A model generated the notes under the pieces. It was given only the letters and a program-made list of their open reading frames with translations. It was not told the origin of the DNA and ran no database searches. A DNA stretch of 64,000 bases from Mobula hypostoma (taxonomy: Eukaryota), in contig NC_086097.1 of assembly GCF_963921235.1 (NCBI RefSeq), forward strand, positions 156,552,001 through 156,616,000, given 5' to 3'. Below are positions 7,978-64,000 of this stretch, piece after piece. Both the position numbers and the translations under genes were made by a program. The first letter of the stretch is position 1, and the number at the start of each line of letters is the position of its first letter.

Positions 7978-8236
7978 TAAATGACATCCACTGACTATCT
8001 TTAGTCCACCCTGCTTGTTACTTCTTCGATGCACTCTAACAGATTTGTCAGGCAAGATGTTCCTTCACAGAAACCATGCTGACTTTGACTTATTTTATCA
8101 TTAGTCTCCAAGTACCCTGAAACTTTATCCTTAATAATAGACTCCAACATTTCCCCAACCACCATGGTTAGGCTAACTTGCCTATAATTTCCTTTCTTTT
8201 GTCTTCTTCCCTTTTTAAAGAGATGAATGGGGGGGG

Positions 8237-8572
8237 CGTCACGTGATGACGTGGGATTGAGACGTGTAAATTCAGCTCTCCCGCAACAAATCAGTAAAGT
8301 ACCGTTTAAATAAAACAAAGTTGGTAAATATTTTTTGAAAACTATTTATAAACTTTGTAAGACTACTTTATAGTATGCCTCCTAAACCGCAACAAAAGAA
8401 GTCTGCTGTTGCGAAGCAGCCGCGAGACGGGAAGAAAAAAGGGCCTACTGCAACGATGGAGCCTCGGACTCAGGTTGGATCTCCTTCGGTAGAACAGGGA
8501 GCAGTGGCGGTGGCAGAGGTTGCTCCGAAGAAGACAACGGAATTGCGCATGCGCAAAGAAGAGCGCATGCGC
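8237..8572 (+). promoter_or_regulatory. Putative L1 internal promoter motifs (CRE half-sites/E-box; two NRF1-type palindromes)
   Basis: CGTCACGTGATGACG at 8237-8251; TTGCGCATGCGCAA at 8543-8556; GCGCATGCGC at 8563-8572. Confidence 0.45.
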
Positions 8573-9496
8573 AAATCGACACAACGCAAACTACAAGAAC
8601 CGACACCCACTGCAATTGAAAATGACTCAGAGTCAGAACTGGATTCTGCAGAGAACACAGATGAAGAAGAGGAGGAAGAATTGGAAGCGAGTGGAAGTAA
8701 AGGAGATGATAGAGACATAAGAGAGGCTGTATTGCGATCAATGGCTGAATTAAAGAAAGTAAAAGAAGAGCTTAGAGATACGAAGAGATGCTATAATAAA
8801 GTTATGGAAAGACAGGACAAAATGGAAAAGAAGCTTCAGAAGATGGAAAGAGAAATGGGGCTTATGAATGATAGAGTGGAAAAAACAGAAAATGATTTGC
8901 TTGTCTGGAACTCGGAAAGAAACCGACTCTTGGAGAAAGTGGACATGTTGGAAAATTTCAGTAGACGTAATAATATAAAAATTGTTGGTCTTGCAGAAGG
9001 TATGGAAGGAGATAAGCCAATAGAATTTTTTCAAAGATGGATCCCAGAGGTTTTGCAAATGGGAGAGGAGGCCCGATCAATTGAAACTGAGCGGGCACAT
9101 AGAGCTTTAAGACCAAAACCAAAAGATGACCAATATCCACGATCGATTTTAATAAAATTCTTAAGATTTCAAGACAAGGAAAGGATTCTACAGGCGGCTG
9201 TTCGAGCTGCCAAAGATAGAAAAGGGCCATTGATAATTAAAGGGAAAAGAGTTTTTTTCTACCCTGATATAAATTACGAACTTTTGAAGAAAAGGAAGAA
9301 GTTTAATCCAGTGAAAAAAACCGTATAGGAGCATGGTTATCAATTTATACTGCGTTATCCTGCAACTTTGAAGATTTTTTTGTCTGGTGGAGAAAAAAGA
9401 TTTTTTGATGACTACCAGAAAGCAGAGCAGTTTGTGCAAGATTCTCTGAATATTCACCAGATACAAGAACAAACTCAGGAGAGGGAGATAGATTGA
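8375..9496 (+). pseudogene. L1 ORF1p (coiled coil, RRM, CTD) with a premature TAG at 9326-9328
   Basis: LENFSRRNNIKIVGLAEG, ERAHRAL and PRSILIKF motifs; the frame continues past the TAG as EHGYQFILRYPATLKIF... to TGA at 9494-9496. Confidence 0.92.
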
Positions 9497-9961
9497 AGAT
9501 GAAGATTGGGTTTAAGAATGGATTTGTTGGATTTTTGAAGCTGGATGAATGTATAAATATAGTATTAATTATATGAGGGGGATAAGAAAGGTTAGTACTG
9601 GAGGAAATTAGCTGGGAATAATAATACTAATTTTGTTTATATATATATAACTTTTTTTTTGTTGCGGGGGAGCTGGAAGAAGCACTGATCGATTGCTACG
9701 TTAATCATGTGTGCAAGCGTGGCTTTTGCCACGACCCGTAAAATGGAAGGGGGTAGTGTTGTGTATCTTTTCATTCACAACATTAGTGGGGGGGTATTTT
9801 GTTTTTTCTTTTTTTTTCTATCTTTTTTTTCTCTTTTTGCCTGGAAGGTTGGGGGGGGGGAACACATAGCATCATGGTGAAGTTTAAAGTGATTCCCCAA
9901 GGAACTATGAGAGTTGAGAAGATAAGTAATATTTTAGATTGGAGTAACTTTGTTAAGAATA

Positions 9962-12900
9962 ATGACTAATTTATTGAATTTTTTGAGTTTTAATGTTAAT
10001 GGGCTTAATGGGCCAGTGAAAAGAAAAAGAATCTTAACATACATTTAAAAAAATGAAGATAGATTTAGCTTTTTTACAGGAAACGCACCTAACAGAAACA
10101 GAACATCAGAAACTAAAGAGAGATTGGGTGGGTAATGTTGTTGCGGCCTCATTTAATTCAAAAGCGAGGGGAGTAGCAATTTTGATCAATAAAACGTTAC
10201 CAATTAGGATACAAAATGTAATAACTGATTCTGCGGGGAGATATGTGATTATACACTGTCAACTTTTTTCCGAACTATGGACTTTTATGAATATTTATGC
10301 ACCAAATGAAAATGATGCAAAATTCATACAAGAAACTTTTTTGAATTTGGCGGATGCACATGAAAAAATATTAGTTGGAGGTGACTTCAATTTTTGCTTA
10401 GACCCAGTCTTAGATAGATCAACCAAGGCTGTTATAAAATCGAAGGTAGTAAATCTAACTTTATCATTGATGAAAGATTTAAATTTGATTGATATATGGA
10501 GAAGAATCAATCCTAAAGAAAGAGACTATTCGTTCTATTCGCACAGACATAAAACTTACTCAAGGATAGACTTTTTTCTATTATCAATGTATATTCAACA
10601 CAGTGAAAAATATGGAATATAAAGCAAGAATATTATCAGATCATTCTCCTTTATTAATGACAATAATAATGGCTGATAAGGAAGAAGTGGCTTATAGATG
10701 GAGATTTAATTCAATATTATTAAAACGTCAAGATTTTTGTGATTTTATGAAAAAGCAGATTCAATGTTTTTTGGATACAAATTTTCATTCAGTGGAGGAT
10801 AAATTTATATTATGGGATGCGATGAAAGCATATCTTAGGGGACAGATAATAAGTTATACGTCTAAAATTAAGAAAGAATATATGGCAGAACTAGATCTAT
10901 TGGAAAAAGAGATTACAAGAATAGAAAAAGAATCACAAAGATATATGTCAGAAGAAAAACGAAGACAACTTGTCAATAAGAAGTTACAATATAATACACT
11001 TCAGACATATAGAACGGAAAAAGCAATTATAAGATCTAAACAAAGGTATTATGAGTTAGGTGAGAGAGCACATAAAATTCTTGCCTGGCAGTTGAAAACA
11101 GAACAAGCTTCCAAAACAATAAATGCAATTAGAACAAGGGCAGATAAAATATCTTATAAACCTCTTGAAATAAATGAAACCTTTAAAAATTTTTATTCTG
11201 AATTATATCAATCAGAATCCCAAAACGATGTTAATGAGATAGAAAGGTTTTTATCACAAGTTTCTCTTCCAAACTTGAATTTGGAAGAACAGAGGGGATT
11301 AGATATGCCTTTTACATTAAAAGAAGTTGAAGAAGCTTTAGGATCACTTCAAAGTAATAAATCTCCAGGAGAAGATGGTTTTCCACCTGAATTTTATAAA
11401 AAATTTAAAGATTTATTATTTCCTCTTTTTATGGAATTAATACGTCAAGCAGAAAAAATACATAAACTTCCAGATTCTTTTTCAACAGCGATTGTAATAG
11501 TATTGCCAAAAAAGGACAGAAATCCTATGAAACCAACATCATACAGGCCTATTTCTTTATTGAATACGGATTATAAAATAATAGCAAAAATTTTATCGAA
11601 TAGATTATCTAAATATTTACCAAAATTAATACATATGGATCAAACAGGATTTATTAAAAATAGACAACTGGCAGATAATGTAACTCGGCTACTCAGTATA
11701 ATTCATTTGGCACAAAAAAGGGATGAGAAGAGTATAGTAGTAGCTTTGGGTGCAGAAAAAGCATTTGATAGATTAGAATGGGATTTTTTATTTAAAGTAT
11801 TAGAAAAATATGGGTTAGGAACATCTTTTATAAATTGGATTAAAACTTTAAATTCTAACCCTAAAGCTAAAGTAGTGACAAACTCTCAAATTTCAACACC
11901 ATTTCAGCTAAAAAGGTCAACTAGACAAGGTTGTCCACTATCACCTGCTCTATTTGTATTGGCGATAGAGCCATTAGCAGAACTAATTAGATTGGATCCA
12001 GATATTATGGGTTTTAGAGTTAACCAAGAGGAACATAAAATTAATTTTTTTGCCGATGATGTTTTGATCTATTTAACAAACCCACAACATTTGTTACATA
12101 AATTATCTTCTAGATTGGATGAATATGGGAAGGTATCAGGTTACAAAATAAACTGGGATAAAAGTGAAATTTTGTCTCTTACTAAAGAAGACTATAGTCA
12201 ATGTCGATTAGTAACCCAATTTAGATGGCCGGTAAATGGTATAAAGTATTTAGGTATAAGACTTGATAGTAATGTAAAGAATTTATATAAATTTAATTAT
12301 TTTCCGCTATTGAAAAAAATTCAAGAAGATCTTGACAAATGGATGATACTACCAATAACATTAGTAGGTAGAGTCAATGTTGTAAAAATGAATATATTTC
12401 TGAGATTACAGTATTTGTTTCAAACATTACCAATACAATTGCCACAGAAATTTTTTCAACAGTTAAATAAATCTGTGAGAAAATTTCTTTGGAAAGGTAA
12501 AATGTCAAGAATATCATTGGAAAAACTGACATGTAAATTTAGGTTAGGAGGGTTACAACTTCCAAACTTTAAAAATTACTATAAAGCAAATCAACTTAGA
12601 TTTATTGCATCTTTTTTCGATGATCAAAAACCAGCATGGATTAAAATAGAACAAGACAAGATAGGAGAAAATAAACCTGAAGATTTTATATATAAATGGG
12701 AATCTAAATGGATACGGGAAAAGAAAGAATCTCCTATATTAACACACTTGATTGATCTGTGGAATAAGATAAATGTTGATAAGGAAACACAGAAATCTCT
12801 ATTAGCAAGGAGACCTTTGTTTCAAAACAGACTTATTCCTTTTACAATGGACAATCAACTTTTATATAATTGGTACCAAAAAGGGATTAAATTTATAGGA

Positions 12901-13737
12901 GATTGTTTTGAACCAGGTATATTGATGTCATTTGAACAATTAAAGGATAAATATAAAATATCTAATAATACTTTCTTTTGCTACTTTCAGTTAAGGGCTT
13001 ACTTAATAGGTAAGCTGGGTCAAACAATGTTTTTGCCAAAAGCTAATGAAATTGAAATTTTAATTCAAAAAGGGAAAATTAAAAAATTTATTTCTTATAT
13101 GTATAATTTGATTCAAGAACAGACAATTAAACAAGGAACCCATAAGTCAAAGCAAAAATGGGAAACAGATCTGAATATTAATATTGATGAAATAAATTGG
13201 TCAAGACTTTGTCTGGACAGTATGACAAATACAATAAATGTTCGACTTAGATTAGTACAATATAATTTTTTACACCAATTATATATTACATCACAAAAAA
13301 TAAATAGATTAAATTCAAATCTATCTGATAAATGTTTTCGGTGTAATCAAGAAATTGGTACTTTTTTACATTCTACTTGGTCTTGTTTTAAAATTCAACC
13401 CTTTTGGATAAATTTAAGGGTCTTATTGGAACAAATTACTGGAATTCAACTTCCACATAACCCTGTATTATTTCTATTAGGTGATATTGAAGGGATAAAA
13501 CCGAAACTTAAATTGAATAAATATCAGAAAGAATTTATAAAAATTGCATTGGCAGTAGCTAAGAAGACTATAGCAGTTACTTGGAAATCTGATTCGTATT
13601 TAAGTATGGATCGTTGGAATAATGAAATGGCTAGTTCTATTCCACTTGAAAAAATTTCTTATAATTTAAGAGATAATTATCTAACATTCTTGAATATTTG
13701 GCGCCCTTACTTACAAAAGATAGGATGTCATATTTAA
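9962..13737 (+). pseudogene. L1 ORF2p (APE endonuclease, RT, CCHC) with two frameshifts
   Basis: Starts MTNLLNFLSFNVNGLN at 9962; frameshifts near 10046-10052 and 10600; LQETH, GGDFN, SDH, RQGCPLSP, FADD and CFRC-x8-H-x4-C motifs. Confidence 0.95.
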
Positions 13738-14293
13738 GTGCTCCGACAAAGAATTTGGTTACTTGGGGAAAATAACGAATAATTATACCAAATTTATTTT
13801 GAATCCCATGGAGCATGTGGAAACCTTCCAATACCCAGGCGGCTCTTCTTTTTTTTTTGTCTTTCTTTCTTTTAGGTAGACTACATATATGGGGGGGAGG
13901 AGGGTTAAGGGGAAGGGGGGGTGGGTAGATTTTATCTTTTCATGTATTCTTTTTGAAAATTCAATAAAAATTATATTAAAAAAAGAGATGAATGACATTT
14001 ACAATCTTCCAGTCCTCCCGGATCATGGCAGAATCAACTGATTGTTGGAAGATCATGACCAATGTATCCGTTTTCTCTTCACCAACCTCTTTCAGGACTC
14101 TGGGTTGCAGTCCATCTGGACAAAATCTTTTGGTATCCTTCTGTATATTATTGGCTAATTTCCCCTCATATTTCATTGTTCCCCTCTTATAGCTTTCTAG
14201 TTGCCTTTGGTTGCATTTTAAAAGCTTCCCAATCATCCGACTTCCCACTCACTTTTGCTACCTTATATGTCCTTTCCTTGTTTTTTATGCAGT

Positions 14294-15907: not shown

Positions 15908-18881
15908 AAAGAGTTATGAACAGATGGACTAAGTATATTCAGGAATCGTTTGAAGACGATCGAGGCAAAAAACCAGAAATTAAGAAAAACATTGAAGGTC
16001 CAAGTATTTTAAAATCTGAAGTTGTCACACTGATGGGGCATTGGGAGCAAGGGTAGGCCCAAATGCAAGACACATCTTGTGAAGTTACTTAGGTTTAGTT
16101 TATTGTACGATACCGGGAGAGCAAAACAGAAGCAGGAATAGTGAACAGGATAAGGACTCAGGATTATGACTAGGCTGGGACCGAGGGTCTGGGCTAGGAC
16201 TCGGAATTGGCTCCCAGAACGAGAGGAGACATGAAGAGGCTAGGGTAGGACTCCGAGCCCGAGACTGGGCAAGGACCCAGTACCTAGGTCTTGCCTCGGG
16301 CTTGGACCCCAAAACCAGGCATGGACATGACATAGGCTAGGGAGAGGAGGAACATGGAAAACAGAGCCTTGGTCACGGGAGAGCAGGTACATGGAACAAT
16401 GGACATATACATAGAACACAGAGCCGGGACCCCTCCTTAGTACAGGACATAAGGCCGGGACTCGCACCCAGAACAGAGAGCCGGGACCCCTCCTTGGGTA
16501 CAGGACATAGGGCCAGGACTCATGACCCTCCGCGGGGCAATGGCAAGACGGCCTGACTTACCCCACGGAGGTGAGGACAGGACAAGACAAGACAAGACAC
16601 GACTCCCCGTGGGGCAACGGCAAGTTGGCCTGACTTACCCCACGGAGGTGAGGACAAGACAAGACAAGACCAACACGAATGGACACCAGACAGTACCTGT
16701 CTAGCTCCGGTGATGGAACTAGACTGAAGTGCAGGCGGGGGCTGCAGTTGAGGGTGAGAGGCAAGAGGGGCAGAGAAAGGATTCAGACAAGGGGGTAGGA
16801 CAGGAATCACAGACCGCCAGGGCCAGGACTTGACACAGAACTGGGAAGCCGCCAGGACCAGGACTTGACTTGGTGCTTGAATGCCGCCAGGGCCAGGACT
16901 TGACTTGGTGCTAGAATGCCGGCAGGACCAGGACTTGACTTAGTACTTGAATGCCCCCTGAGCCAGGACTTGAATTGGAGCCTCCGGGTAGTGGCGAGCT
17001 CTCGACTCGGCCTGGGAACAGTAGACAGTGGTTCTTGATTCCCTCTGGCGGGTTAACTGACGGACCCACCTCGGTGAGGAAACTTTGCAGGCTCTCTTTG
17101 GCGAGGTAACTTGACAAGGTTGCTCCGGTGAGAAAAGGTGAATTAACGGCACTCGCTTCGGGCGGAAACTAGGTTTGTTCCAGCCAGATAACATTGGCAC
17201 GCCATACCTTGGTGACTTTGCAAATGCTCCCGCGCCGAACAGCTGAAAACCGGAGACTATAAACTACCGGTTCAGCCGAGCATTAATTGCCTGTAATCAC
17301 CAAACTCAAGGGACACAGGAAAACAGGGAATCAATGGTCCAGATCATAACATAAGCAAGGTAAATTTAAAGGGACCCCGATCCGGACCATGACAGAAGTT
17401 CGTAATGCAATAAGTAAGATGAAGAAATGAAAGGCAGCAGATCCTGATGAGATAGTAATACAACAAGTTATTGCCCTTGAAGATTATGGGATTGAAAAAC
17501 TTGCTGATTTAATCAATGACATTTATGAGACTGGAATAATACCAGAAGAGATGAATAACTCAGTATTTATCATTCTTCCTAAGAAAGCAGGAGCAATAGA
17601 ATGTGAATTACATAGAACCATAAGTTTAATGAGTCATATCACCAAGATATTTCTAAGAATTTTGATGACGAGCTAAAAGTAAGATACAAGCTGAAACAGG
17701 CAAAGAACCATGTGGTTTTATGAAAGACAAAGGTACAAGAAATGCAATATTGATGTTAAGGATACTATCAGAATGAGCTATTCAAGTGCAAAAAGATTTG
17801 TTTGTTTGTTTTATATACTACACAAAAGCATTTCATAAAGTGAAGCGCAATAATTTATTACAGAAAACTCTAGATCTAGATTCATAAGACCTCCGCCTAA
17901 TCATAAATCTGCACTGGGAACAAACTGCCGCTGTAAGAATAGGTGGAGATGTAACTCAGTTTATGAAAATCATGAGAGGCGTTAGACAAGGGTGTGTTTT
18001 CTCCCCTGATTTATTTAATGTGTACAGTGAAACAATATTACAAAAAATAAGATACATCTTGGGAATCAAAGTTGGCGGTGAAAACATCAATAATTTCAGA
18101 TACGCAAATGATACTGTGTTAATTGCAAGTATGAATGAAGAACTAGAAAATTTAATTGATATAATTGAAGAAAGTGCAAAAATGGGTCTATCTGTTAATT
18201 GCAAAAAGACAGAATGTATGGTGATATCCAAAAAGAAAGAGAATCCTATCTGCAGGCTGAGAATAAATGAGGAAGACATAAAACAAGTAAAGAACTTTTG
18301 CTACTTAGGAAGCTGGGTGAGATCAGATGGCAGGTGCGACATGGACATCAAAAGAAGAAAAGGGATGGCAAAAGACACCTTTACGAGAATGAAGAGTATA
18401 CTGACCAATACTAAACTAGGCATGACAACCCACCTCAGAGTACTGAAATGTTACGTTTATCCAGTTATGTTATATGGCTCAGAATGTTGGACAATATCTG
18501 GTAAGATGAGGAAACGATTTGTAGCAGCAGAGATGTGGTTTTTGAGGAGGATGCAGCATATCATGGATGAAACCAATATCTAATGAGGATGTCATGAACA
18601 GAGCAAACACAGAAAGAGAAATAATGTATGAGATCATGAAAAGACAACGTGACTTCATTGGACATGTGATTAGGAAAGAGGAGTTAGAATGCACAATAAT
18701 TATGGGAAAGATTGAAGGGAAGAAAGGAAGAGGAAGACAAAGACAAATGATGATGGAGACAGCAGCCAGAGAACTGGAAATGAATACCAATAATTTGATC
18801 CACTTGATCCGTAACAGGAATGTGTGGGCCATGGCAGTCAAAGCTCAAACTGGGCACCGCACCTGATGATGATGATGATGA
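15908..18881 (+). mobile_element. RTE-clade (BovB-like) LINE, 5'-truncated, (GAT)n tail
   Basis: RGVRQGCVFSPDLFN, NNFRYANDTVLIA, FCYLGS, LYGSECWT and GKIEGKKGRGR motifs; TGATGATGATGATGATG tail at about 18864-18881. Confidence 0.9.
16023..17394 (-). mobile_element. Solo LTR (1372 bp, Gypsy-like) inserted in the RTE
   Basis: TGTCA...TGACA termini; exact 5-bp TSD GAAGT at 16018-16022 and 17395-17399; minus-strand AATAAA near 16099-16104; internal tandem repeats. Confidence 0.88.
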
Positions 18882-27474: not shown

Positions 27475-28570
27475 ACCTAGTTCATATTTTTTTTAGATAT
27501 CTGCAGATTAGAAGTTTTTTGAATGGTGTTTTACCTAACTTTCCAATATTTCACCCAACTAATATTACAGAAAAATTTTTAGGTTTAAATCCCTATCAGA
27601 AGCACTTAATAGCAGTTTTGTATGATTTAATTATGAAAATACATCTAGGTACATCTGATAAAATAAAAAAATGAATGGGAAAGAGAACTTCAGGTATCTT
27701 TACCTATAGAGAAATGGAAGAAAATTCTTCAACTAGTTAGTACTTCTTCAATATGTGCTAGACATACACTGATCAAATTTTAAATGGTCCATAGGGCTCA
27801 TATGTCTGAGGATAAATTAGCTTGTTTTTACTGAAATATAAACCCTGTGTGTGACAGATGTAATTCTGAGGTGGCCTCTCTGACACATATGTTTTGGTCT
27901 TGCCCTCTTTTAGATAAATATTGGAAAGGTATTTTTGATATTACTTCAACAGTTTTGCATATTAATTTAAAACCTCACCCTATTACTGCAATTTTCAGAT
28001 TACCAGTGACAGACGATGGTCACTTATCCTTTTCAGCTTGCTGTTTGATTGCACTTGTTACACTAATAACTAAAAGATCCATTTTACTTAAATGGAAAGA
28101 TTCTGATCCTCCTATTACTTCTCAATGGTTTTCTCAAACTATATTATGTTTAAACCTGGAAAAAATTAGGTGTGGTATGGTTGATTCTTCAGTTAAATTG
28201 AAGAAACCTGGAGACCGTTTATTCAACATTTTCATATGATGTAAGCTGTCCCTTTCAGAACCCTTTTATTTTTTTAATAATCTTTTGTTTATCTTTGGAG
28301 GAGCGGAGTTAATGACAAATAACGTTCTTATCCGAAGGAATAGGACATCCCAGTTTTGTTTTGTTTGTTTTTTTTAGCTTAGGGGGTTCTTTATAAAATT
28401 CTTTTTTCATGTTCAACTACTTAGAGATTGGAAGGCTTGAATTATATATTTTACTCAAATTATGCTTGTATATATTAACCATTATCAATGTTATACTGAT
28501 CTCTTTGTATCATTAATATTGTTATGTATATTAATCTGAAACTTAATGAAAAGATTGAAAAAGGAAAAAA
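27475..28570 (+). mobile_element. L1 3' fragment of a second L1 family
   Basis: 14-bp TSD TATTGTGAACTGTT at 27461-27474 and 28572-28585; CDRCNSEVASLTHMFWSC knuckle; A-rich tail. Confidence 0.9.
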
Positions 28571-41788: not shown

Positions 41789-43345
41789 ATCCACAAACCT
41801 GCCTGTCCTGGCAGACCTATTGTCTCAGCTTGCTCCTGCCCCACCAAACTCATTTCTGCGTACCTCAACATGGTTTTATCCCCCCTTGTTCAATCCCTTC
41901 CTACCTATGTTTGTGACACTTCTCACGCTCTTAAACTTTTCGATGATTTTAAGTTTCCTGGCCCCCACCGCTTTATTTTCATCATGGATGTCCAGTCCCT
42001 ATATACTTCCATCCCCTATCAGGAAGGTCTCAAAGCTCTCCGCTTCTTTTTGGATTCCAGACCTAATCAGTCCCCCTCTATCACCACTCTGCTCCATCTA
42101 GCGGAATTAGTCCTTACTCGTAATAATTTCTCCTTTGGCTTCTCCCACTTCCTCCAAACTAAAGGTGTAGCTATGGGCACCCGTATGGGTCCTAGCTATG
42201 CCTGCCTTTTTGTTGGGTTTGTGGAACAATCTATGTTCCGTGCCTATTCTGGTATCTGTCCCCCACTTTTCCTTCGCTACATCGAACACTGCATTGGCGC
42301 TGCTTCCTGCATGCATGCTGAGTTCGTTGACTTTATTAACTTTGCCTCCAACTTTCACTCTGCCCTCAAGTTTACCTGGTCCATTTCCAACACCTCCCTC
42401 CCCTTTCTAGATCTTTCTGTCTCTGTCTCGGGAGACAGCTTATCCACTGATGTCTACTATAAGCCTACTGACTCTCACAGCTATCTGGACTATTCCTCTT
42501 CTCACCCTGTCTCCTGCAAAAATGCCATCCCCTTCTCGCAATTCCTCCATCTCTGCCGCATCTGCTCTCAGGATGAGGCTTTTCATTCCAGGACGAGGGA
42601 GATGTCCTCCTTTTTTAAAGAAAGGGGCTTCCCTTCCTCCACTATCAACTCTGCTCTCAAACGCATCTCCCCCATTTCACGTACACCTGCTCTCACTCCA
42701 ACCTCCCGCCACCCCACTAGGAATAGGGTTCCCCTGGTCCTCACCTACCACCCCACCAGCCTCCGGGTCCAACATATTATTCTCCGTAACTTCTGCCACC
42801 TCCAAGGGGATCCCACCACTAAGCACATCTTTCCCTCCCCCCATTTCTCTGCTTTCCGCAGAGATCGCTCCCTACACGACTCCCTTGTCCATTCGTCCCC
42901 CCCATCCCTCCCCACTGATCTCCCTCCTGGCACTTATCCTTGTAAGCGGAACAAGTGCTACACATGCCCTTACACTTCCTCCCTCATCACCATTCAGGGC
43001 CCCAGACAGTCCTTCCAGGTGAGACGACACTTCACCTGTGAGTCGACTGGGGTGATATACTGCATCTGGTGCTCCCGATGTGGCCTTCTATATATTGGCG
43101 ACACCCGACGCAGACTGGGAGATCGTTTTGCTGAACACCTACACTCTGTCCGCCAAAGAATGCAAAAGCTCCCAGTGGCCACACATTTTAATTCCACATC
43201 CCATTCCCATTCTGACATGTGTATCCATGGCCTCCTCTACTGTAAAGATGAAGCCACACTCAGGTTGGAGGAACAACACCTTATATTCCATCTGGGTAGC
43301 CTCCAAGCTGATGGCATGAACATCGACTTCTCCAACTTCCGCTAA
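41789..43345 (+). pseudogene. PLE RT/GIY-YIG polyprotein, N-terminally truncated but with an uninterrupted frame
   Basis: IHKPACPGRPIVS, MDVQSLYTSIP, GVAMGTRMGPSYA, RYIEH in place of RYIDD, LPFLD, VIYCIWCSRCGLLYIG. Confidence 0.92.
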
Positions 43346-57634: not shown

Positions 57635-60171
57635 AGAAATGTGTGCAATAAAGGAACAGCAGTTATAATGGGTGACTTCAATCTACATGTAGATTAGGTG
57701 AACCAAATTGGTAAAGGTGCTGAGGAAGAGGATTTCTTGGAATGTATGCGGGATGGTTTTTTGAACCAACATGTCGAGGAACCAACTAGAGAGCAGGCTA
57801 TTCTGGACTGGGTTTTGAGCAATGAGGAAGGGTTAATTAGCAATCTTGTCGTGAGAGGCCCCTTGGGTAAGAGTGACCATAATATGGTGCAATTCTTCAT
57901 TAAGATGGAGAGTGACAAAGTTAATTCAGAAACAAAGGTTCTGAACTTAAAGAGGGGTAACTTTGAAGGTATGAGACGTGAATTAGCTAAGATAGACTGG
58001 CAAATGACACTTAAAGGATTGACGGTGGATATGCAATGGCAAGCATTTAAAGGTTGCATGGATGAACTACAACAATTGTTCATCCCAGTTTGGCAAAAGA
58101 ATAAATCAAGGAAGGTAGTGCACCTGTGGCTGACAAGAGAAATTAGGGATAGTATCAATTCCAAAGAAGAAGCATACAAATTAGCCAGAGAAAGTGGCTC
58201 ACCTGAGGACTGGGAGAAATTCAGAGTTCAGCAGAGGAGGACAAAGGGCTTAATTAGGAAGGGGAAAAAAGATTATGAGAGAAAACTGGCAGGGAACATA
58301 AAAACGGACTGTAAAAGCTTTTATAGATATGTAAAAAGGAAAAGACTGGTGAAGACAAATGTAGGTCCCCTGCAGACAGAAACAGGTGAATTGATTATGG
58401 GGAGCAAGGACATGGCAGACCAATTGAATAATTACTTTGGTTCTGTCTTCACTAAGGAGGACATAAATAACCTTCCAGAAATAGTAGGGGACAGAGGGTC
58501 CAGTGAGATGGAGGAACTGAGCGAAATACATGTTGGTAGGGAAGTGGTGTTAGGTAAATTGAAGGGATTGAAGGCAGATAAATCCCCAGGGCCAGATGGT
58601 CTGCATCCTAGAGTGCTTAAGGAAGTAGCCCAAGAAATAGTGGATGCATTAGTGACAATTTTTCAAAACTCGTTAGATTCTGGACTAGTTCCTGAGGATT
58701 GGAGGGTGGCTAATATAACTCCACTTTTTAAAAAAGGAGGGGGAGAGAAACCGGGGAATTATAGACCGGTTAGCCTAACGTCGGTGGTGGGGAAACTGCT
58801 GGAGTCAGTTATCAAGGATGTGATAACAGCACATTTGGAAAGCGGTGAAATGATCGGACAAAGTCAGCATGGATTTGTGAAAGGAAAATCATGTCTGACG
58901 AATTTCATAGAATTTTTTGAGGATGTAACTAGTAGGATGGATAGGGGAGAACCAGTGGATGTGGTATATTTGGATTTTCAAAAGGCTTTTGACAAGGTCC
59001 CACACAGGAGATTAGTGTGCAAACTTAAAGCACACGGTATTGGGGGTAAGGTATTGGTGTGAATGGAGAATTGGTTAGCAGACAGGAAGCAAAGAGTGGG
59101 AATAAACGGGACTTTTTCAGAATGGCAGGCGGTGACTAGTGGGCTACCGCAAGGCTCAGTGCTGGGACCCCAGTTGTTTACAATATATACTAATGACTTG
59201 GATGAGGGAATTAAATGCAGCATCTCCAAGTTTGCGGATGACACGAAGCTGGGTGGCAGTGTTAGCTGTGAGGAGGATGCTAAGAGGATGCAGGGTGACT
59301 TGGATAGGTTGGGTGAGTGGGCAAATTCATGGCAGATGCAATTTAATGTGGATAAATGTGAAGTTATCCACTTTGGTGGCAAAAATAGGAAAACAGATTA
59401 TTATCTGAATGGTGGCCGATTAGGAAAAGGGGAGGTGCAACGAGACCTGGGTGTCATTATACACCAGTCATTGAAAGTGGGCATGCAGGTACAGCAGGCA
59501 GTGAAAAAGGCGAATGGTATGCTGGCATTTATAGCGAGAGGATTCGAGTACAGGAGCAGGGAGGTACTACTGCAGTTGTACAAAGCCTTGGTGAGACCAC
59601 ACCTGGAGTATTGTGTGCAGTTTTGGTCCCCTAATCTGAGGAAAGACATCCTTACTTTAGAGGGAGTACAAAGAAGGTTCACCAGATTGATTCCTGGGAT
59701 GGCAGGACTTTCATATGAAGAAAGACTGGATGAACTGGGCTTGTACTCGTTGGAATTTAGAAGATTGAGGGGGGATCTGATTGAAACGTATAAGATCCTA
59801 AAGGGATTGGACAGGCTAGATGCAGGAAGATTGTTCCAGATGTTGGGGAAGTCCAGAACGAGGGGCCACAGTTTGAGGATAGAGGGGAAGCCTTTTAGGA
59901 CCGAGATTAGGAAAAACTTCGTCACACAGAGAGTGGTGAATCTGTGGAATTCTCTGCCACAGGTAACAGTTGAGGCCAGTTCATTGGCTATATTTAAGAG
60001 GGAGTTAGATATGGCCCTTGTGGCTACGGGGGTCAGGGGGTATGGAGGGAAGGCTGGGGCGGGGTTCTGAGTTGGATGATCAGCCATGATCATAATAAAT
60101 GGCGGTGCAGGCTCGAAGGGCCAAATGGCCTACTCCTGCACCTATTTTCTATGTTTCTATGTTTCTATGTT
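57635..60171 (+). mobile_element. Young CR1 LINE, 5'-truncated within the endonuclease; ORF2 has two nonsense codons at expected Trp positions (57695-57697, 59060-59062)
   Basis: IMGDFN, SDH, YLDFQKAFDKVPH, PQGSVLGP and KFADD motifs; (TTTCTATG)n tail. Confidence 0.95.
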
Positions 60172-62088: not shown

Positions 62089-64000
62089 CCTAGTCCATTT
62101 CCAAAACCTCCTTCGCCTTTCTCAATCTCACTGTCTCTGTCTTTGGTAACAGGTTTCCTACTGATGTCCATTATAAACCCATGGACTCTCACAGCAACCT
62201 GGACTTTTCCTCTTCCCACAGTTTCACTTGTAAAAATGCCACCTTCTTCTCTCAATTCCTCAGTTTCTGCCGCATCTGCTCTCAGGTTGAGGCCTTTCAT
62301 TCTAGAACAAAGGAGATGTCCTCCTTTTTCAAAGAAAGTGGCTTCCCTTCCTCCACCATCAATGCTGCCCTCAACCGCAAAAGATAACAGCACATTTGGA
62401 AAGCGGTGAAATGATCGGACAAAGTCAGCATGGATTTGTGAAAGGAAAATCATGTCTGACGAATCTCATAGAATTTTTTGAGGATGTAACTAGTAGAGTG
62501 GATAGGGGAGAACCAGTGGATGTGGTATATTTGGATTTTCAAAAGGCTTTTGACAAGGTCCCACACAGGAGATTAGTGTGCAAACTTAAAGCACACGGTA
62601 TTGGGGGTAAGGTATTGGTGTGGGTGGAGAATTGGTTAGCAGATAGGAAGCAAAGAGTGGGAATAAACGGGACCTTTTCAGAATGGCAGGCGGTGACTAG
62701 TGGGCTACCGCAAGGCTCAGTGCTGGGACCCCAGTTGTTTACAATATATATTAATGACTTGGATGAGGGAATTAAATGCAGCATCTCCAAGTTTGCGGAT
62801 GACACGAAGCTGGGTGGCAGTGTTAGCAGTGAGGAGGATGCTAAGAGGATGCAGGGTGACTTGGATAGGTTGGGTGAGTGGGCAAACTCATGGCAGATGC
62901 AATTTAATGTGGATAAATGTGAAGTTATCCACTTTGGTGGCAAAAATAGGAAAACAGATTATTATCTGAATGGTGGCCGATTAGGAAAAGGGGAGGTGCA
63001 ACGAGACCTGGGTGTCATTATACACCAGTCATTGAAAGTGGGCATGCAAGTACAGCAGGCGGTGAAAAAGGCGAATGGTATGCTGGCATTTATAGCGAGA
63101 GGATTCGAGTACAGGAGCAGGGAGGTATTACTGCAGTTGTACAAGGCCTTGGTGAGACCACACCTGGAGTATTGTGTGCAGTTTTGGTCCCCTAATCTGA
63201 GGAAAGACATCTTTGCCATAGAGGGAGTACAAAGAAGGTTCACCAGATTGATTCCTGGGATGGCAGGTCTTTCATATGAAGAAAGACTGGATGAACTGGG
63301 CTTGTACTCGTTGGAATTTAGAAGATTGAGGGGGGATCTGATTGAAACGTATAAGATCCTAAAGGGATTGGACAGGCTAGATGCAGGAAGATTGTTCCAG
63401 ATGTTGGGGAAGTCCAGAACGAGGGGCCACAGTTTGAGGATAGAGGGGAAGCCTTTTAGGACCGAGATTAGGAAAAACTTCGTCACACAGAGAGTGGTGA
63501 ATCTGTGGAATTCTCTGCCACAGGTAACAGTTGAGGCCAGTTCATTGGCTATATTTAAGAGGGAGTTAGATATGGCCCTTGTGGCTACGGGGTCAGGGGG
63601 TATGGAGGGAAGGCTGGGGCAGGGTTCTGAGTTGGAGGATCAGCCATGATCATAATAAATGGCGGTGCAGGCTCGAAGGGCCGAATGGCCTACTCCTGCA
63701 CCTATTTTCTATGTTTCTATGTTTCTATGTTTCTATCTCTTCCATTTCACGCACGTCTGCACTTACCCCAGCCTCCTGCCACCCTACTGGGGATAGGGTT
63801 TCTCTTGTCCTCACCTACCACCCCACCAGCCTCCATGTCCAGCACATAATTTGCTGGAACTTCCGCCATTTCCAATGGGATTCCACCACCAAGCACATCT
63901 TTCCCTCCCCCCCACTTTCTGCTTTTCACAGGGATCACTCCCTACGTGACTCCCTTGTCTATTCCGCCTCCTGCCACTTATCCTTGCAAGCAGAACAAGT
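62089..64000 (+). mobile_element. Penelope fragment split by a young CR1; continues beyond the right edge
   Basis: DSHSNLDFSSSH...CKNATFFSQF...RICSQVEAFHSRT; CTCAACCGCA rejoins TCTCTTCCATTTCACG after the CR1. Confidence 0.88.
62381..63734 (+). mobile_element. Young CR1 LINE, 5'-truncated; RT frame open until a 1-bp deletion near 63589
   Basis: Near-identical to 58822-60171; (TTTCTATG)n tail. Confidence 0.95.

Follow-up and report, generated by a model that had tools for sequence, protein, structure and literature searches.

L1 retrotransposons of a ray genome and of other animals carry a three-part arrangement in their untranslated regions, namely, an upstream ORF (uORF) of 1 to 5 codons at the first AUG of the element, complementarity between the 5'UTR and the spacer that separates ORF1 and ORF2 of the same element, with compensatory changes in the two arms, and, in many of these elements, a bridging ORF that opens 0 to 40 nt past the spacer arm and ends at the start of ORF2. 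The feature is real and represents a new arrangement built from known parts; we are highly confident that the layout as a whole is genuine and under selection. The question of how ORF2 of L1 is translated is sharpest for AUG-rich spacers of 400 to 1200 nt. Such long-spacer L1s are probably ancestral (PMC5381506), and the long spacer has been described as inhibitory and its persistence as hard to reconcile with this effect (PMC4072516). The three parts are short, separately mutable and known to exact coordinates, which makes the ORF2 question directly testable. In the open full-text literature searched and in the available text of PMC3894237, we found no description of L1 5'UTR-spacer pairing, of a conserved micro-uORF or of a bridging ORF.

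The L1 element and its three parts

The window, a stretch of 64,000 nt from Mobula hypostoma, contains a full-length L1 of a family denoted here A (Table 1). Assignment to the L1 clade follows from an L1-type RRM in ORF1, an APE endonuclease and a reverse transcriptase (RT) in ORF2, an A-tail and a target-site duplication; the homologs of ORF1 (17 matches) come from rays and, at a greater distance, from teleosts, in which their annotation is L1 RRM protein. The window copy is dead: its ORF1 contains a premature TAG at 9326-9328 that is found in this copy only (1 of 30 family A copies), and its ORF2 is split by frameshifts. Because the TAG is private, ORF1 of the family ends at 9496, and the 465-nt spacer given in the preliminary description of this DNA is correct.

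Table 1. Coordinates of the L1 element and of its parts within the window
Feature	Positions	Strand	Remarks
5' target-site duplication, 13 nt	8217..8229	+	same 13 nt at 13982-13994
L1-clade non-LTR retrotransposon, full length	8230..13981	+	family A, inactivated copy
Extended duplex, outer 5' strand	8236..8267	+	28 bp predicted with 9682-9714; covers the uORF
Micro-uORF, 4 codons (MTWD*)	8246..8260	+	first AUG of the element; counterpart in 33/33 elements
Core helix, 5' strand	8271..8290	+	20 bp; contains the conserved AGCTC box
ORF1	8375..9496	+	373 codons in family A; looped out by the predicted duplex
5' portion of the spacer	9497..9657	+	5 AUGs within
Core helix, 3' strand	9658..9677	+	20 bp
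Extended duplex, outer 3' strand	9682..9714	+	contains the AUG of the bridging ORF
Bridging ORF	9707..9969	+	86 codons in the family majority; stop at 9967-9969 overlaps the ORF2 start
ORF2 (endonuclease, RT)	9962..13737	+	frameshifted in the window copy
3' target-site duplication	13982..13994	+	copy of the 5' duplication

The pairing that was originally pointed out, 20 contiguous positions with 18 Watson-Crick pairs and U.G at 8272:9676 and 8279:9669, is present as described. The element contains 86 contiguous helices that reach 14 bp or more, and at -35.0 kcal/mol this core helix is the strongest of them (-19.9 for the next one). Not one of 200 dinucleotide-shuffled spacers pairs equally well with the 5' arm of the family (z -7.1). 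Folding of the region 8230-9990 pairs 8236-8290 with 9658-9714 through 48 bp, of which 39 are Watson-Crick and 9 are G-U, with no A.C; the pair probabilities are mostly 0.85 to 1.0, with a minimum of 0.45 (0.53 on the outer 5' strand). The duplex predicted in this way would form on the sense RNA, loop out ORF1 and run out to 8236:9714, about 6 nt from the 5' end, burying both the uORF and the AUG at 9707. Minimum-energy folds of the whole region are uncontrolled and often pair elsewhere, and we draw support from them for family A only. Folded alone, the 5'UTR (8230-8400) forms a local structure (z -2.9) that differs from the duplex, so that two states are possible; in the local fold, the G-run pairs with the start of ORF1 and the box pairs with the end of the uORF. 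There is also a 10-nt direct repeat (8281-8290 and 8387-8396): half of the 5' arm recurs at the start of ORF1, which gives the spacer arm a second possible partner (15 bp, -18.3).

Short uORFs are known from the 5'UTR of human L1. The uORF of the window copy, ATG ACG TGG GAT TGA, ends 10 nt before the core helix, as initially noted, and a gap of 7 to 14 nt separates the uORF stop from the helix in 12 of the 15 strongly pairing elements, a range that is partly fixed by the search window. Conservation and covariation of the two arms and of the uORF had been proposed as a check; for the uORF, a counterpart exists in every element. The first AUG is located at +17 to +29 and meets a stop within 1 to 5 codons in all 15 ray families and all 18 elements from other animals, compared with shuffle expectations of 0.75 and 0.88, respectively (1.6 in total versus 33 of 33), in a test that was not blind because the 5' starts were picked with the sequence in view. 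After ATG GAG, the stop varies by family and can be TGA, TAA or TAG. The uORF start coincides with ATGG, the core of the YY1 motif that is named in PMC5381506, in 24 of the 33 elements and lacks it in the other 9. Among published ends available to us, inspected by eye and uncontrolled, a micro-uORF is present in 17 of 17 from zebrafish, 12 of 12 from frog (10 codons in one case) and 3 of 3 from lizard clade 2.

The third part concerns what had been considered a difficulty, the AUGs between the landing site and ORF2. The AUGs at 9707, 9743, 9874 and 9907 and the ORF2 AUG at 9962 are at the positions originally listed; because the first of them past the arm, 9707, opens an ORF that ends at ORF2, the difficulty is removed, and a shunt would land on this bridging ORF, not on ORF2. 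The AUGs at 9743, 9874 and 9907 are in frame with 9707 in the family A majority. The bridging ORF of the window copy itself is broken by homopolymer slippage, with a stop at 9878-9880; among 67 family A copies, only 30 keep the bridging frame, versus 18 and 19 for the other two frames, and 26 of the 67 end at +8.

For comparison across elements, a bridging ORF was defined as an out-of-frame, AUG-started ORF in the last 330 nt that ends within 20 nt of the ORF2 AUG. This definition applies to 30 elements, family A' having no ORF2, and F2 and L334 no usable ORF2 AUG. Such an ORF exists in 25 of the 30; it has at least 45 codons (45 to 110) in 19 and is shorter in 6, and there is none in 5, including the strongly pairing L367. 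Against 500 dinucleotide shuffles per element, the enrichment is highly significant (Fisher p=7e-7 in the 7 ray lineages, p=5e-9 in the 15 others), and when the anchor was moved 60 to 300 nt upstream (five anchors), only 0 to 1 of the 30 elements contained such an ORF. In 14 of 19 elements, no other AUG lies between the stronger arm and the bridging AUG, and the latter follows the arm within 40 nt, a limit set after viewing the ray data (1.6 expected for a random arm; these ORFs have 56 to 110 codons); the number is 11 of 15 when only independent elements are counted (1.2 expected). This placement does not hold in D1, E, 319, 336 and 338. Upstream of the bridging AUG, 143 AUGs are retained in 7002 nt, 2 to 18 per spacer, which argues against scanning from the ORF1 stop. 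The bridging peptides are dissimilar among elements and look unconstrained (synonymous/non-synonymous 7/17 and 4/14), suggesting that it is the open frame itself that matters.

Pairing across families and its history in family A

Protein, Pfam and pattern searches in the genome yielded 15 family sequences from 7 lineages, represented by majority lines of 3 to 30 copies (a single copy for H). Pairing was scored with two fixed windows, nt 1-18 and 41-62, that were set after viewing the ray data. The nested score exceeds that of 40 of 40 shuffled spacers in 8 of the 15 families (A, A', B, C, D2, D3a, F2 and G) and is weak in the other 7, where the score was equalled by 3 (D4 and F1), 5 (B'), 7 (E), 8 (D3b), 16 (D1) and 24 (H) of the 40 shuffles. 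Cognate pairs score above the 180 cross-lineage, non-cognate pairs (p=0.0055; p=1e-4 with a strand-neutral score), and in the shuffle control, families A and C reach z values of -7 to -8.5. The arms share little sequence among families, family C having its own helix of about 29 bp and family B an 11+6-bp helix at the extreme 5' end, and the spacing of the arms varies as well; three compensatory pairs were identified by eye in the D families. Two further observations concern the spacers of this genome: the 5'UTR of family C (L062-L085) pairs with the spacer of family E (L286-L293) at -49.5, better than either cognate pairing, which may reflect a past 5'UTR swap, and the spacer of family D4 (L266-L270) opens with a diverged duplicate of the 3' end of ORF1.

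A metagenome scan with an endonuclease alignment produced 80 loci, of which the 50 with about 1.5 kb or more upstream were examined and 18, with a recognisable 5' terminus, ORF1 and spacer, were retained; the rest are truncated, lack such a terminus or no longer have the spacer. Among the 18, two are related to family G. With the same windows, the cognate pairing in these 18 elements is stronger than in every one of 100,000 random permutations of the assignments (p<1e-5), and a rank test gives p=2.7e-4. Taken singly, 6 of the 18 exceed 40 of 40 shuffles and two more exceed 39 of 40; elements 338, 334, 385, 330, 336 and 343 pair at the chance level, and about half of the 18 are weak. What recurs among the elements is the box helix; the 5'-terminal (outer) helix does not (p=0.33 for the 15 strongly pairing ones), and a universal two-helix architecture was rejected, the outer helix being lineage-specific; a universal local hairpin between the uORF and the box was rejected as well, being present in only 10 of 33. 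In the supplementary sequences available from PMC5381506, inspected by eye and uncontrolled, the spacer contains a complement of the box region in 8 of the 16 families from zebrafish and in 5 of the 12 from frog. Two distant elements, L350 and L351 (34% endonuclease identity), have a YY1-like motif at the 5' end, a 7-codon uORF and an AGCTCC box.

Changes in the duplex could be followed within the family A lineage, for which 95 of 110 A-like loci were aligned (5 were flagged duplicates and 10 had no 5' match or spacer anchor) and ordered by an ORF1 tree, with 91 placed in seven groups. From the oldest to the youngest subfamily, the number of non-pairing positions among the 48 is 6, 3, 1 and 0, the oldest being represented by only 4 copies and noisy. 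The pair 8284:9664 passes from U-A through U.G to C-G, 8287:9661 from A.G to C-G, and both 8249:9701 and 8260:9689 from A.C to A-U. The predictions of the preliminary description hold for the arms: the complementarity is family-wide and covaries, and it recurs in unrelated families and in other animals. Many single families do no better than shuffles, as would be expected if the complementarity arose by chance in one family only, yet this explanation is refuted by the z values of families A and C, the compensatory history and the permutation result in other animals, and we assign it practically no weight.

Watson-Crick pairs of family A changed to G.U at five positions (8258, 8267, 8272, 8284 and 8290) and to A.C at none; these G.U states are the best evidence, from one lineage only, that it is the sense RNA that probably pairs. 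Over all 33 elements, the pairing scores of the sense strand are no different from those of the antisense strand (p=0.26), and the ratio of G.U to A.C is not above background (10:4 versus 52:24, p=1.0; 57:21, p=0.07), so a G.U bias as general proof of the strand was dropped as non-significant. These overall strand tests leave room for the idea that the arms act as DNA, that is, as inverted promoter motifs (an ETS-like 5' end and the AGCTC box) that form an antisense or internal promoter and are kept alike by gene conversion. Such an origin would account for the arm of family A, which copies the first 55 nt in inverted and collinear form, and for that of family B, an inverted motif that is presumably ETS-like. 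It would not account for stepwise change via U.G that led to the present 9 G.U and no A.C, for arms that differ in spacing and sequence among families, or for the bridging ORF, which it does not predict; moreover, none of 30 family B copies simply starts at the arm. We therefore regard this explanation as very unlikely. An internal start at the arm, considered on account of family B counts of 1285 upstream and 1474 downstream, was rejected given that none of the 30 sampled copies begins there. One family B copy (L434, approximately 1490-1500) has a 5' inversion that breaks exactly at the start of the spacer arm, one of two inversions among the 30 copies.

A sister family, A', which accounts for 19 of the 110 A-like loci, has lost ORF2, its spacer being joined to the 3'UTR and followed by an A-tail. 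It retains 45 of the 48 duplex pairs and the open bridging frame; its divergence from the ORF2-bearing parent is only about 4-8%, so that the duplex may be plain inheritance. Like HAL1 (PMC5753468), A' has ORF1 only, with the spacer running into the 3'UTR, and was amplified non-autonomously, so that it counts as a HAL1; unlike the HAL1 of PMC5753468, which originated independently in mammals, it resides in a ray genome and keeps the duplex. The HAL1-like, ORF1-only loci are L089, L092-L101, L103-L105, L171, L176, L179, L184 and L190. Searches with P0014 and P0015 returned A-like copies only, P0017 matched ORF2 ends, and P0010 gave no match at the cut-off used.

A candidate route to ORF2 and its alternatives

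The best model, in our view, is a relay from the uORF by a shunt across the duplex to the bridging ORF and from there by stop-restart to ORF2; judging from the sequences and the predicted folds, it has about an even chance of being correct. A ribosome reading the uORF would open the weak outer duplex and halt at the strong core, the 40S subunit would resume on the freed spacer strand beyond the core, the bridging ORF would carry the ribosome past the remaining AUGs, and its termination would lead to stop-restart initiation on ORF2. With the duplex open, ribosomes would scan on to ORF1, so the stability of the duplex would set a low ORF2:ORF1 ratio. Ribosome shunting is what we infer here from layout and folding; if this is right, a gene-length ribosome shunt combined with a stop-restart relay would operate in a genome-resident vertebrate element. 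The retention of the duplex in the ORF2-less A' and a strand bias that is non-significant overall speak against a plain shunt. The weak pairing of many single elements, the lineage-specific outer helix and the elements whose bridging ORF is short or missing count against the model as well. The relay half of the model fits the spacer deletions in a megabat L1, where removal of the spacer AUGs reduced retrotransposition about 3.3-fold and removal of the 3' third of the spacer about 6.9-fold (PMC4072516); that element was synthesised as ORF1+spacer and ORF2 blocks, so its own 5'UTR is apparently absent.

The same geometry of arm and AUG would be expected if the uORF were not translated at all and the closed duplex simply held the cap and initiation factors beside the bridging AUG for direct ribosome entry, the uORF only damping ORF1 or being a promoter by-product. 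Family A, where the duplex extends to about 6 nt from the 5' end, and family B, where the AUG is 0 nt past a 5'-terminal helix and the uORF lies inside a local hairpin, suit such tethering well, and the frequent ATGG starts (24 of 33), which match the YY1 core (PMC5381506), suit a promoter by-product. Nevertheless, an AUG with a quick stop is kept in the 9 elements without ATGG, the stop codons interchange, and the 5'-terminal helix is not general; we judge cap tethering to be improbable, if worth serious consideration.

In another reading, the duplex, which ORF1p may help to anneal, would switch off the translation of ORF1 or serve in RNP assembly, and the bridging ORF would be reached by restart after the ORF1 stop, a route proposed for human L1. 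The predicted duplex indeed buries the uORF and blocks the scanning route to ORF1, the 5'UTR folds otherwise on its own, the duplex is retained in A', and the prevailing model for mammalian L1 is termination-reinitiation (PMC5972666). This reading leaves unexplained why 14 of 19 elements have no other AUG between the arm and the bridging AUG and how ribosomes would pass the 2 to 18 upstream AUGs of each spacer, and the low divergence of A' from its parent weakens the argument from retention; we consider it rather unlikely.

Splicing could also be served by a duplex that brings a donor at the uORF end to an acceptor in the spacer, yielding a spliced ORF2 mRNA. The uORF stop often occurs in a GTRAG-like context and the spacers contain pyrimidine tracts; however, about a third of the elements, including family A, have a stop without GT, no spliced retro-copies turned up among the few junctions tried, the matches to the donor variants being point changes (24 of 24 in E and 6 of 6 in B) and two family A junction patterns giving 0 matches, and splicing would make the bridging ORF needless. 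Contigs from sequencing runs presumed to be RNA, aligned to families A and E, contain no joint of 5'UTR and spacer, which, for contigs alone, weighs neither way. The probability of this explanation is accordingly very low.

Beyond the elements at hand, the relay invites a broader reading that we hold to be possible and rather doubtful: the RT of the ancestral vertebrate L1 would have been made by a three-step relay on a single RNA, from the micro-uORF by a shunt past all of ORF1, through the covarying duplex, to a sacrificial third ORF that passes the ribosome on to ORF2, a duplex switch, possibly closed by ORF1p, would order ORF1 before ORF2, and the short-spacer mechanism of mammals would be a reduced form.

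Relation to known systems and other features of the window

Pararetroviral shunting requires a short uORF that ends before a helix (by 7-8 nt in RTBV and RTSV) and, past the helix, a landing site that is unstructured and rich in UA (PMC5902531). The L1 layout resembles the shunts of CaMV, RTBV and RTSV in that a 5'-proximal uORF stops, with respect to the core helix, shortly ahead of it, a long structured region would be bypassed and translation would restart downstream (PMC5902531). It differs from the CaMV type in that not a leader but an entire protein gene of about 1.37 kb would be bypassed, UA-richness is missing at the landing site, the predicted helix of family A covers the uORF, and the first AUG past the helix opens a relay ORF, with the target, ORF2, one step later. 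The 40 nt after the arm are not rich in AU (60% vs 62%), which counts against a CaMV-type shunt, and 9682-9714 is predicted to be paired, so that family A would have no unstructured landing site. With the landing site not UA-rich, L1 works at best like the pararetroviral shunt and is not a member of that kind. Of the CaMV-type layout, the short 5' uORF stands, in all 33 elements; not supported are a landing site that is AU-rich and unstructured and, in family A, a uORF left free ahead of the stem, the predicted duplex covering the latter.

Another parallel is the Pol shunt of duck hepatitis B virus, whose RNA is bicistronic and whose RT ORF is reached by a shunt that departs close to the 5' end and passes the first long ORF (PMC5902531); its take-off site is described as undefined and it lands near the Pol AUG, and the available text of PMC5902531 names neither a long-range duplex nor a bridging ORF. 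Stop-restart is known from caliciviruses (through TURBS), SART1 and mammalian L1 (PMC5902531, PMC5972666), all of which, like the elements described here, have an upstream ORF that stops a few nt from the start of ORF2; unlike in those systems, the upstream ORF here is a separate, unconserved spacer frame of 45 to 110 codons, not ORF1. The UGGGA motif 1 of TURBS (an element of 40-87 nt) shows no fixed distance: 13 of 30 elements lack it, and in the others its position varies, mostly between 110 and 180 nt upstream. An Rfam search of 8100-10100 of the window gave no IRES, of the dicistrovirus intergenic type or any other, and a single match at the chance level (E 0.97).

The L1 sequence AGACGTG at about +30 (8260-8268 in the window), which we take to resemble the downstream promoter element of insect LINEs, has similar counterparts in frog and fish L1 ends. 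Conserved 5' motifs at about 30 and 40 bp have been described in frog by PMC5381506, which addresses the same elements and the same question; it predicts an IRES in the long spacers of vertebrate L1, shows no structure common to its spacer folds, and in its main text does not deal with 5'UTR pairing, a uORF or a spacer ORF ('complementar' and 'uORF' occur 0 times).

Several ray proteins listed under host gene names (P0001, P0003, P0005, P0006 and P0013) are largely L1 ORF1p, and these labels are probably gene-model artefacts. One family A copy (L005, 673-1449) is inserted in the spacer of an older family C element, directly 3' of ORF1. Elsewhere in the window, coding regions are located within 41870-43345 (an ORF of 491 aa) and at 57746-60070, 62411-63649 and 27889-28239; we take the 491-aa ORF to be a Penelope-like RT with a GIY-YIG motif, and the other regions presumably represent two CR1-like RT copies, nearly identical to each other, and a 3' fragment of a further L1. 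Positions 282-495 and 16413-16979 of the window are occupied by tandem arrays, in which the periods are 53, 57, 77 and 35/70 nt.
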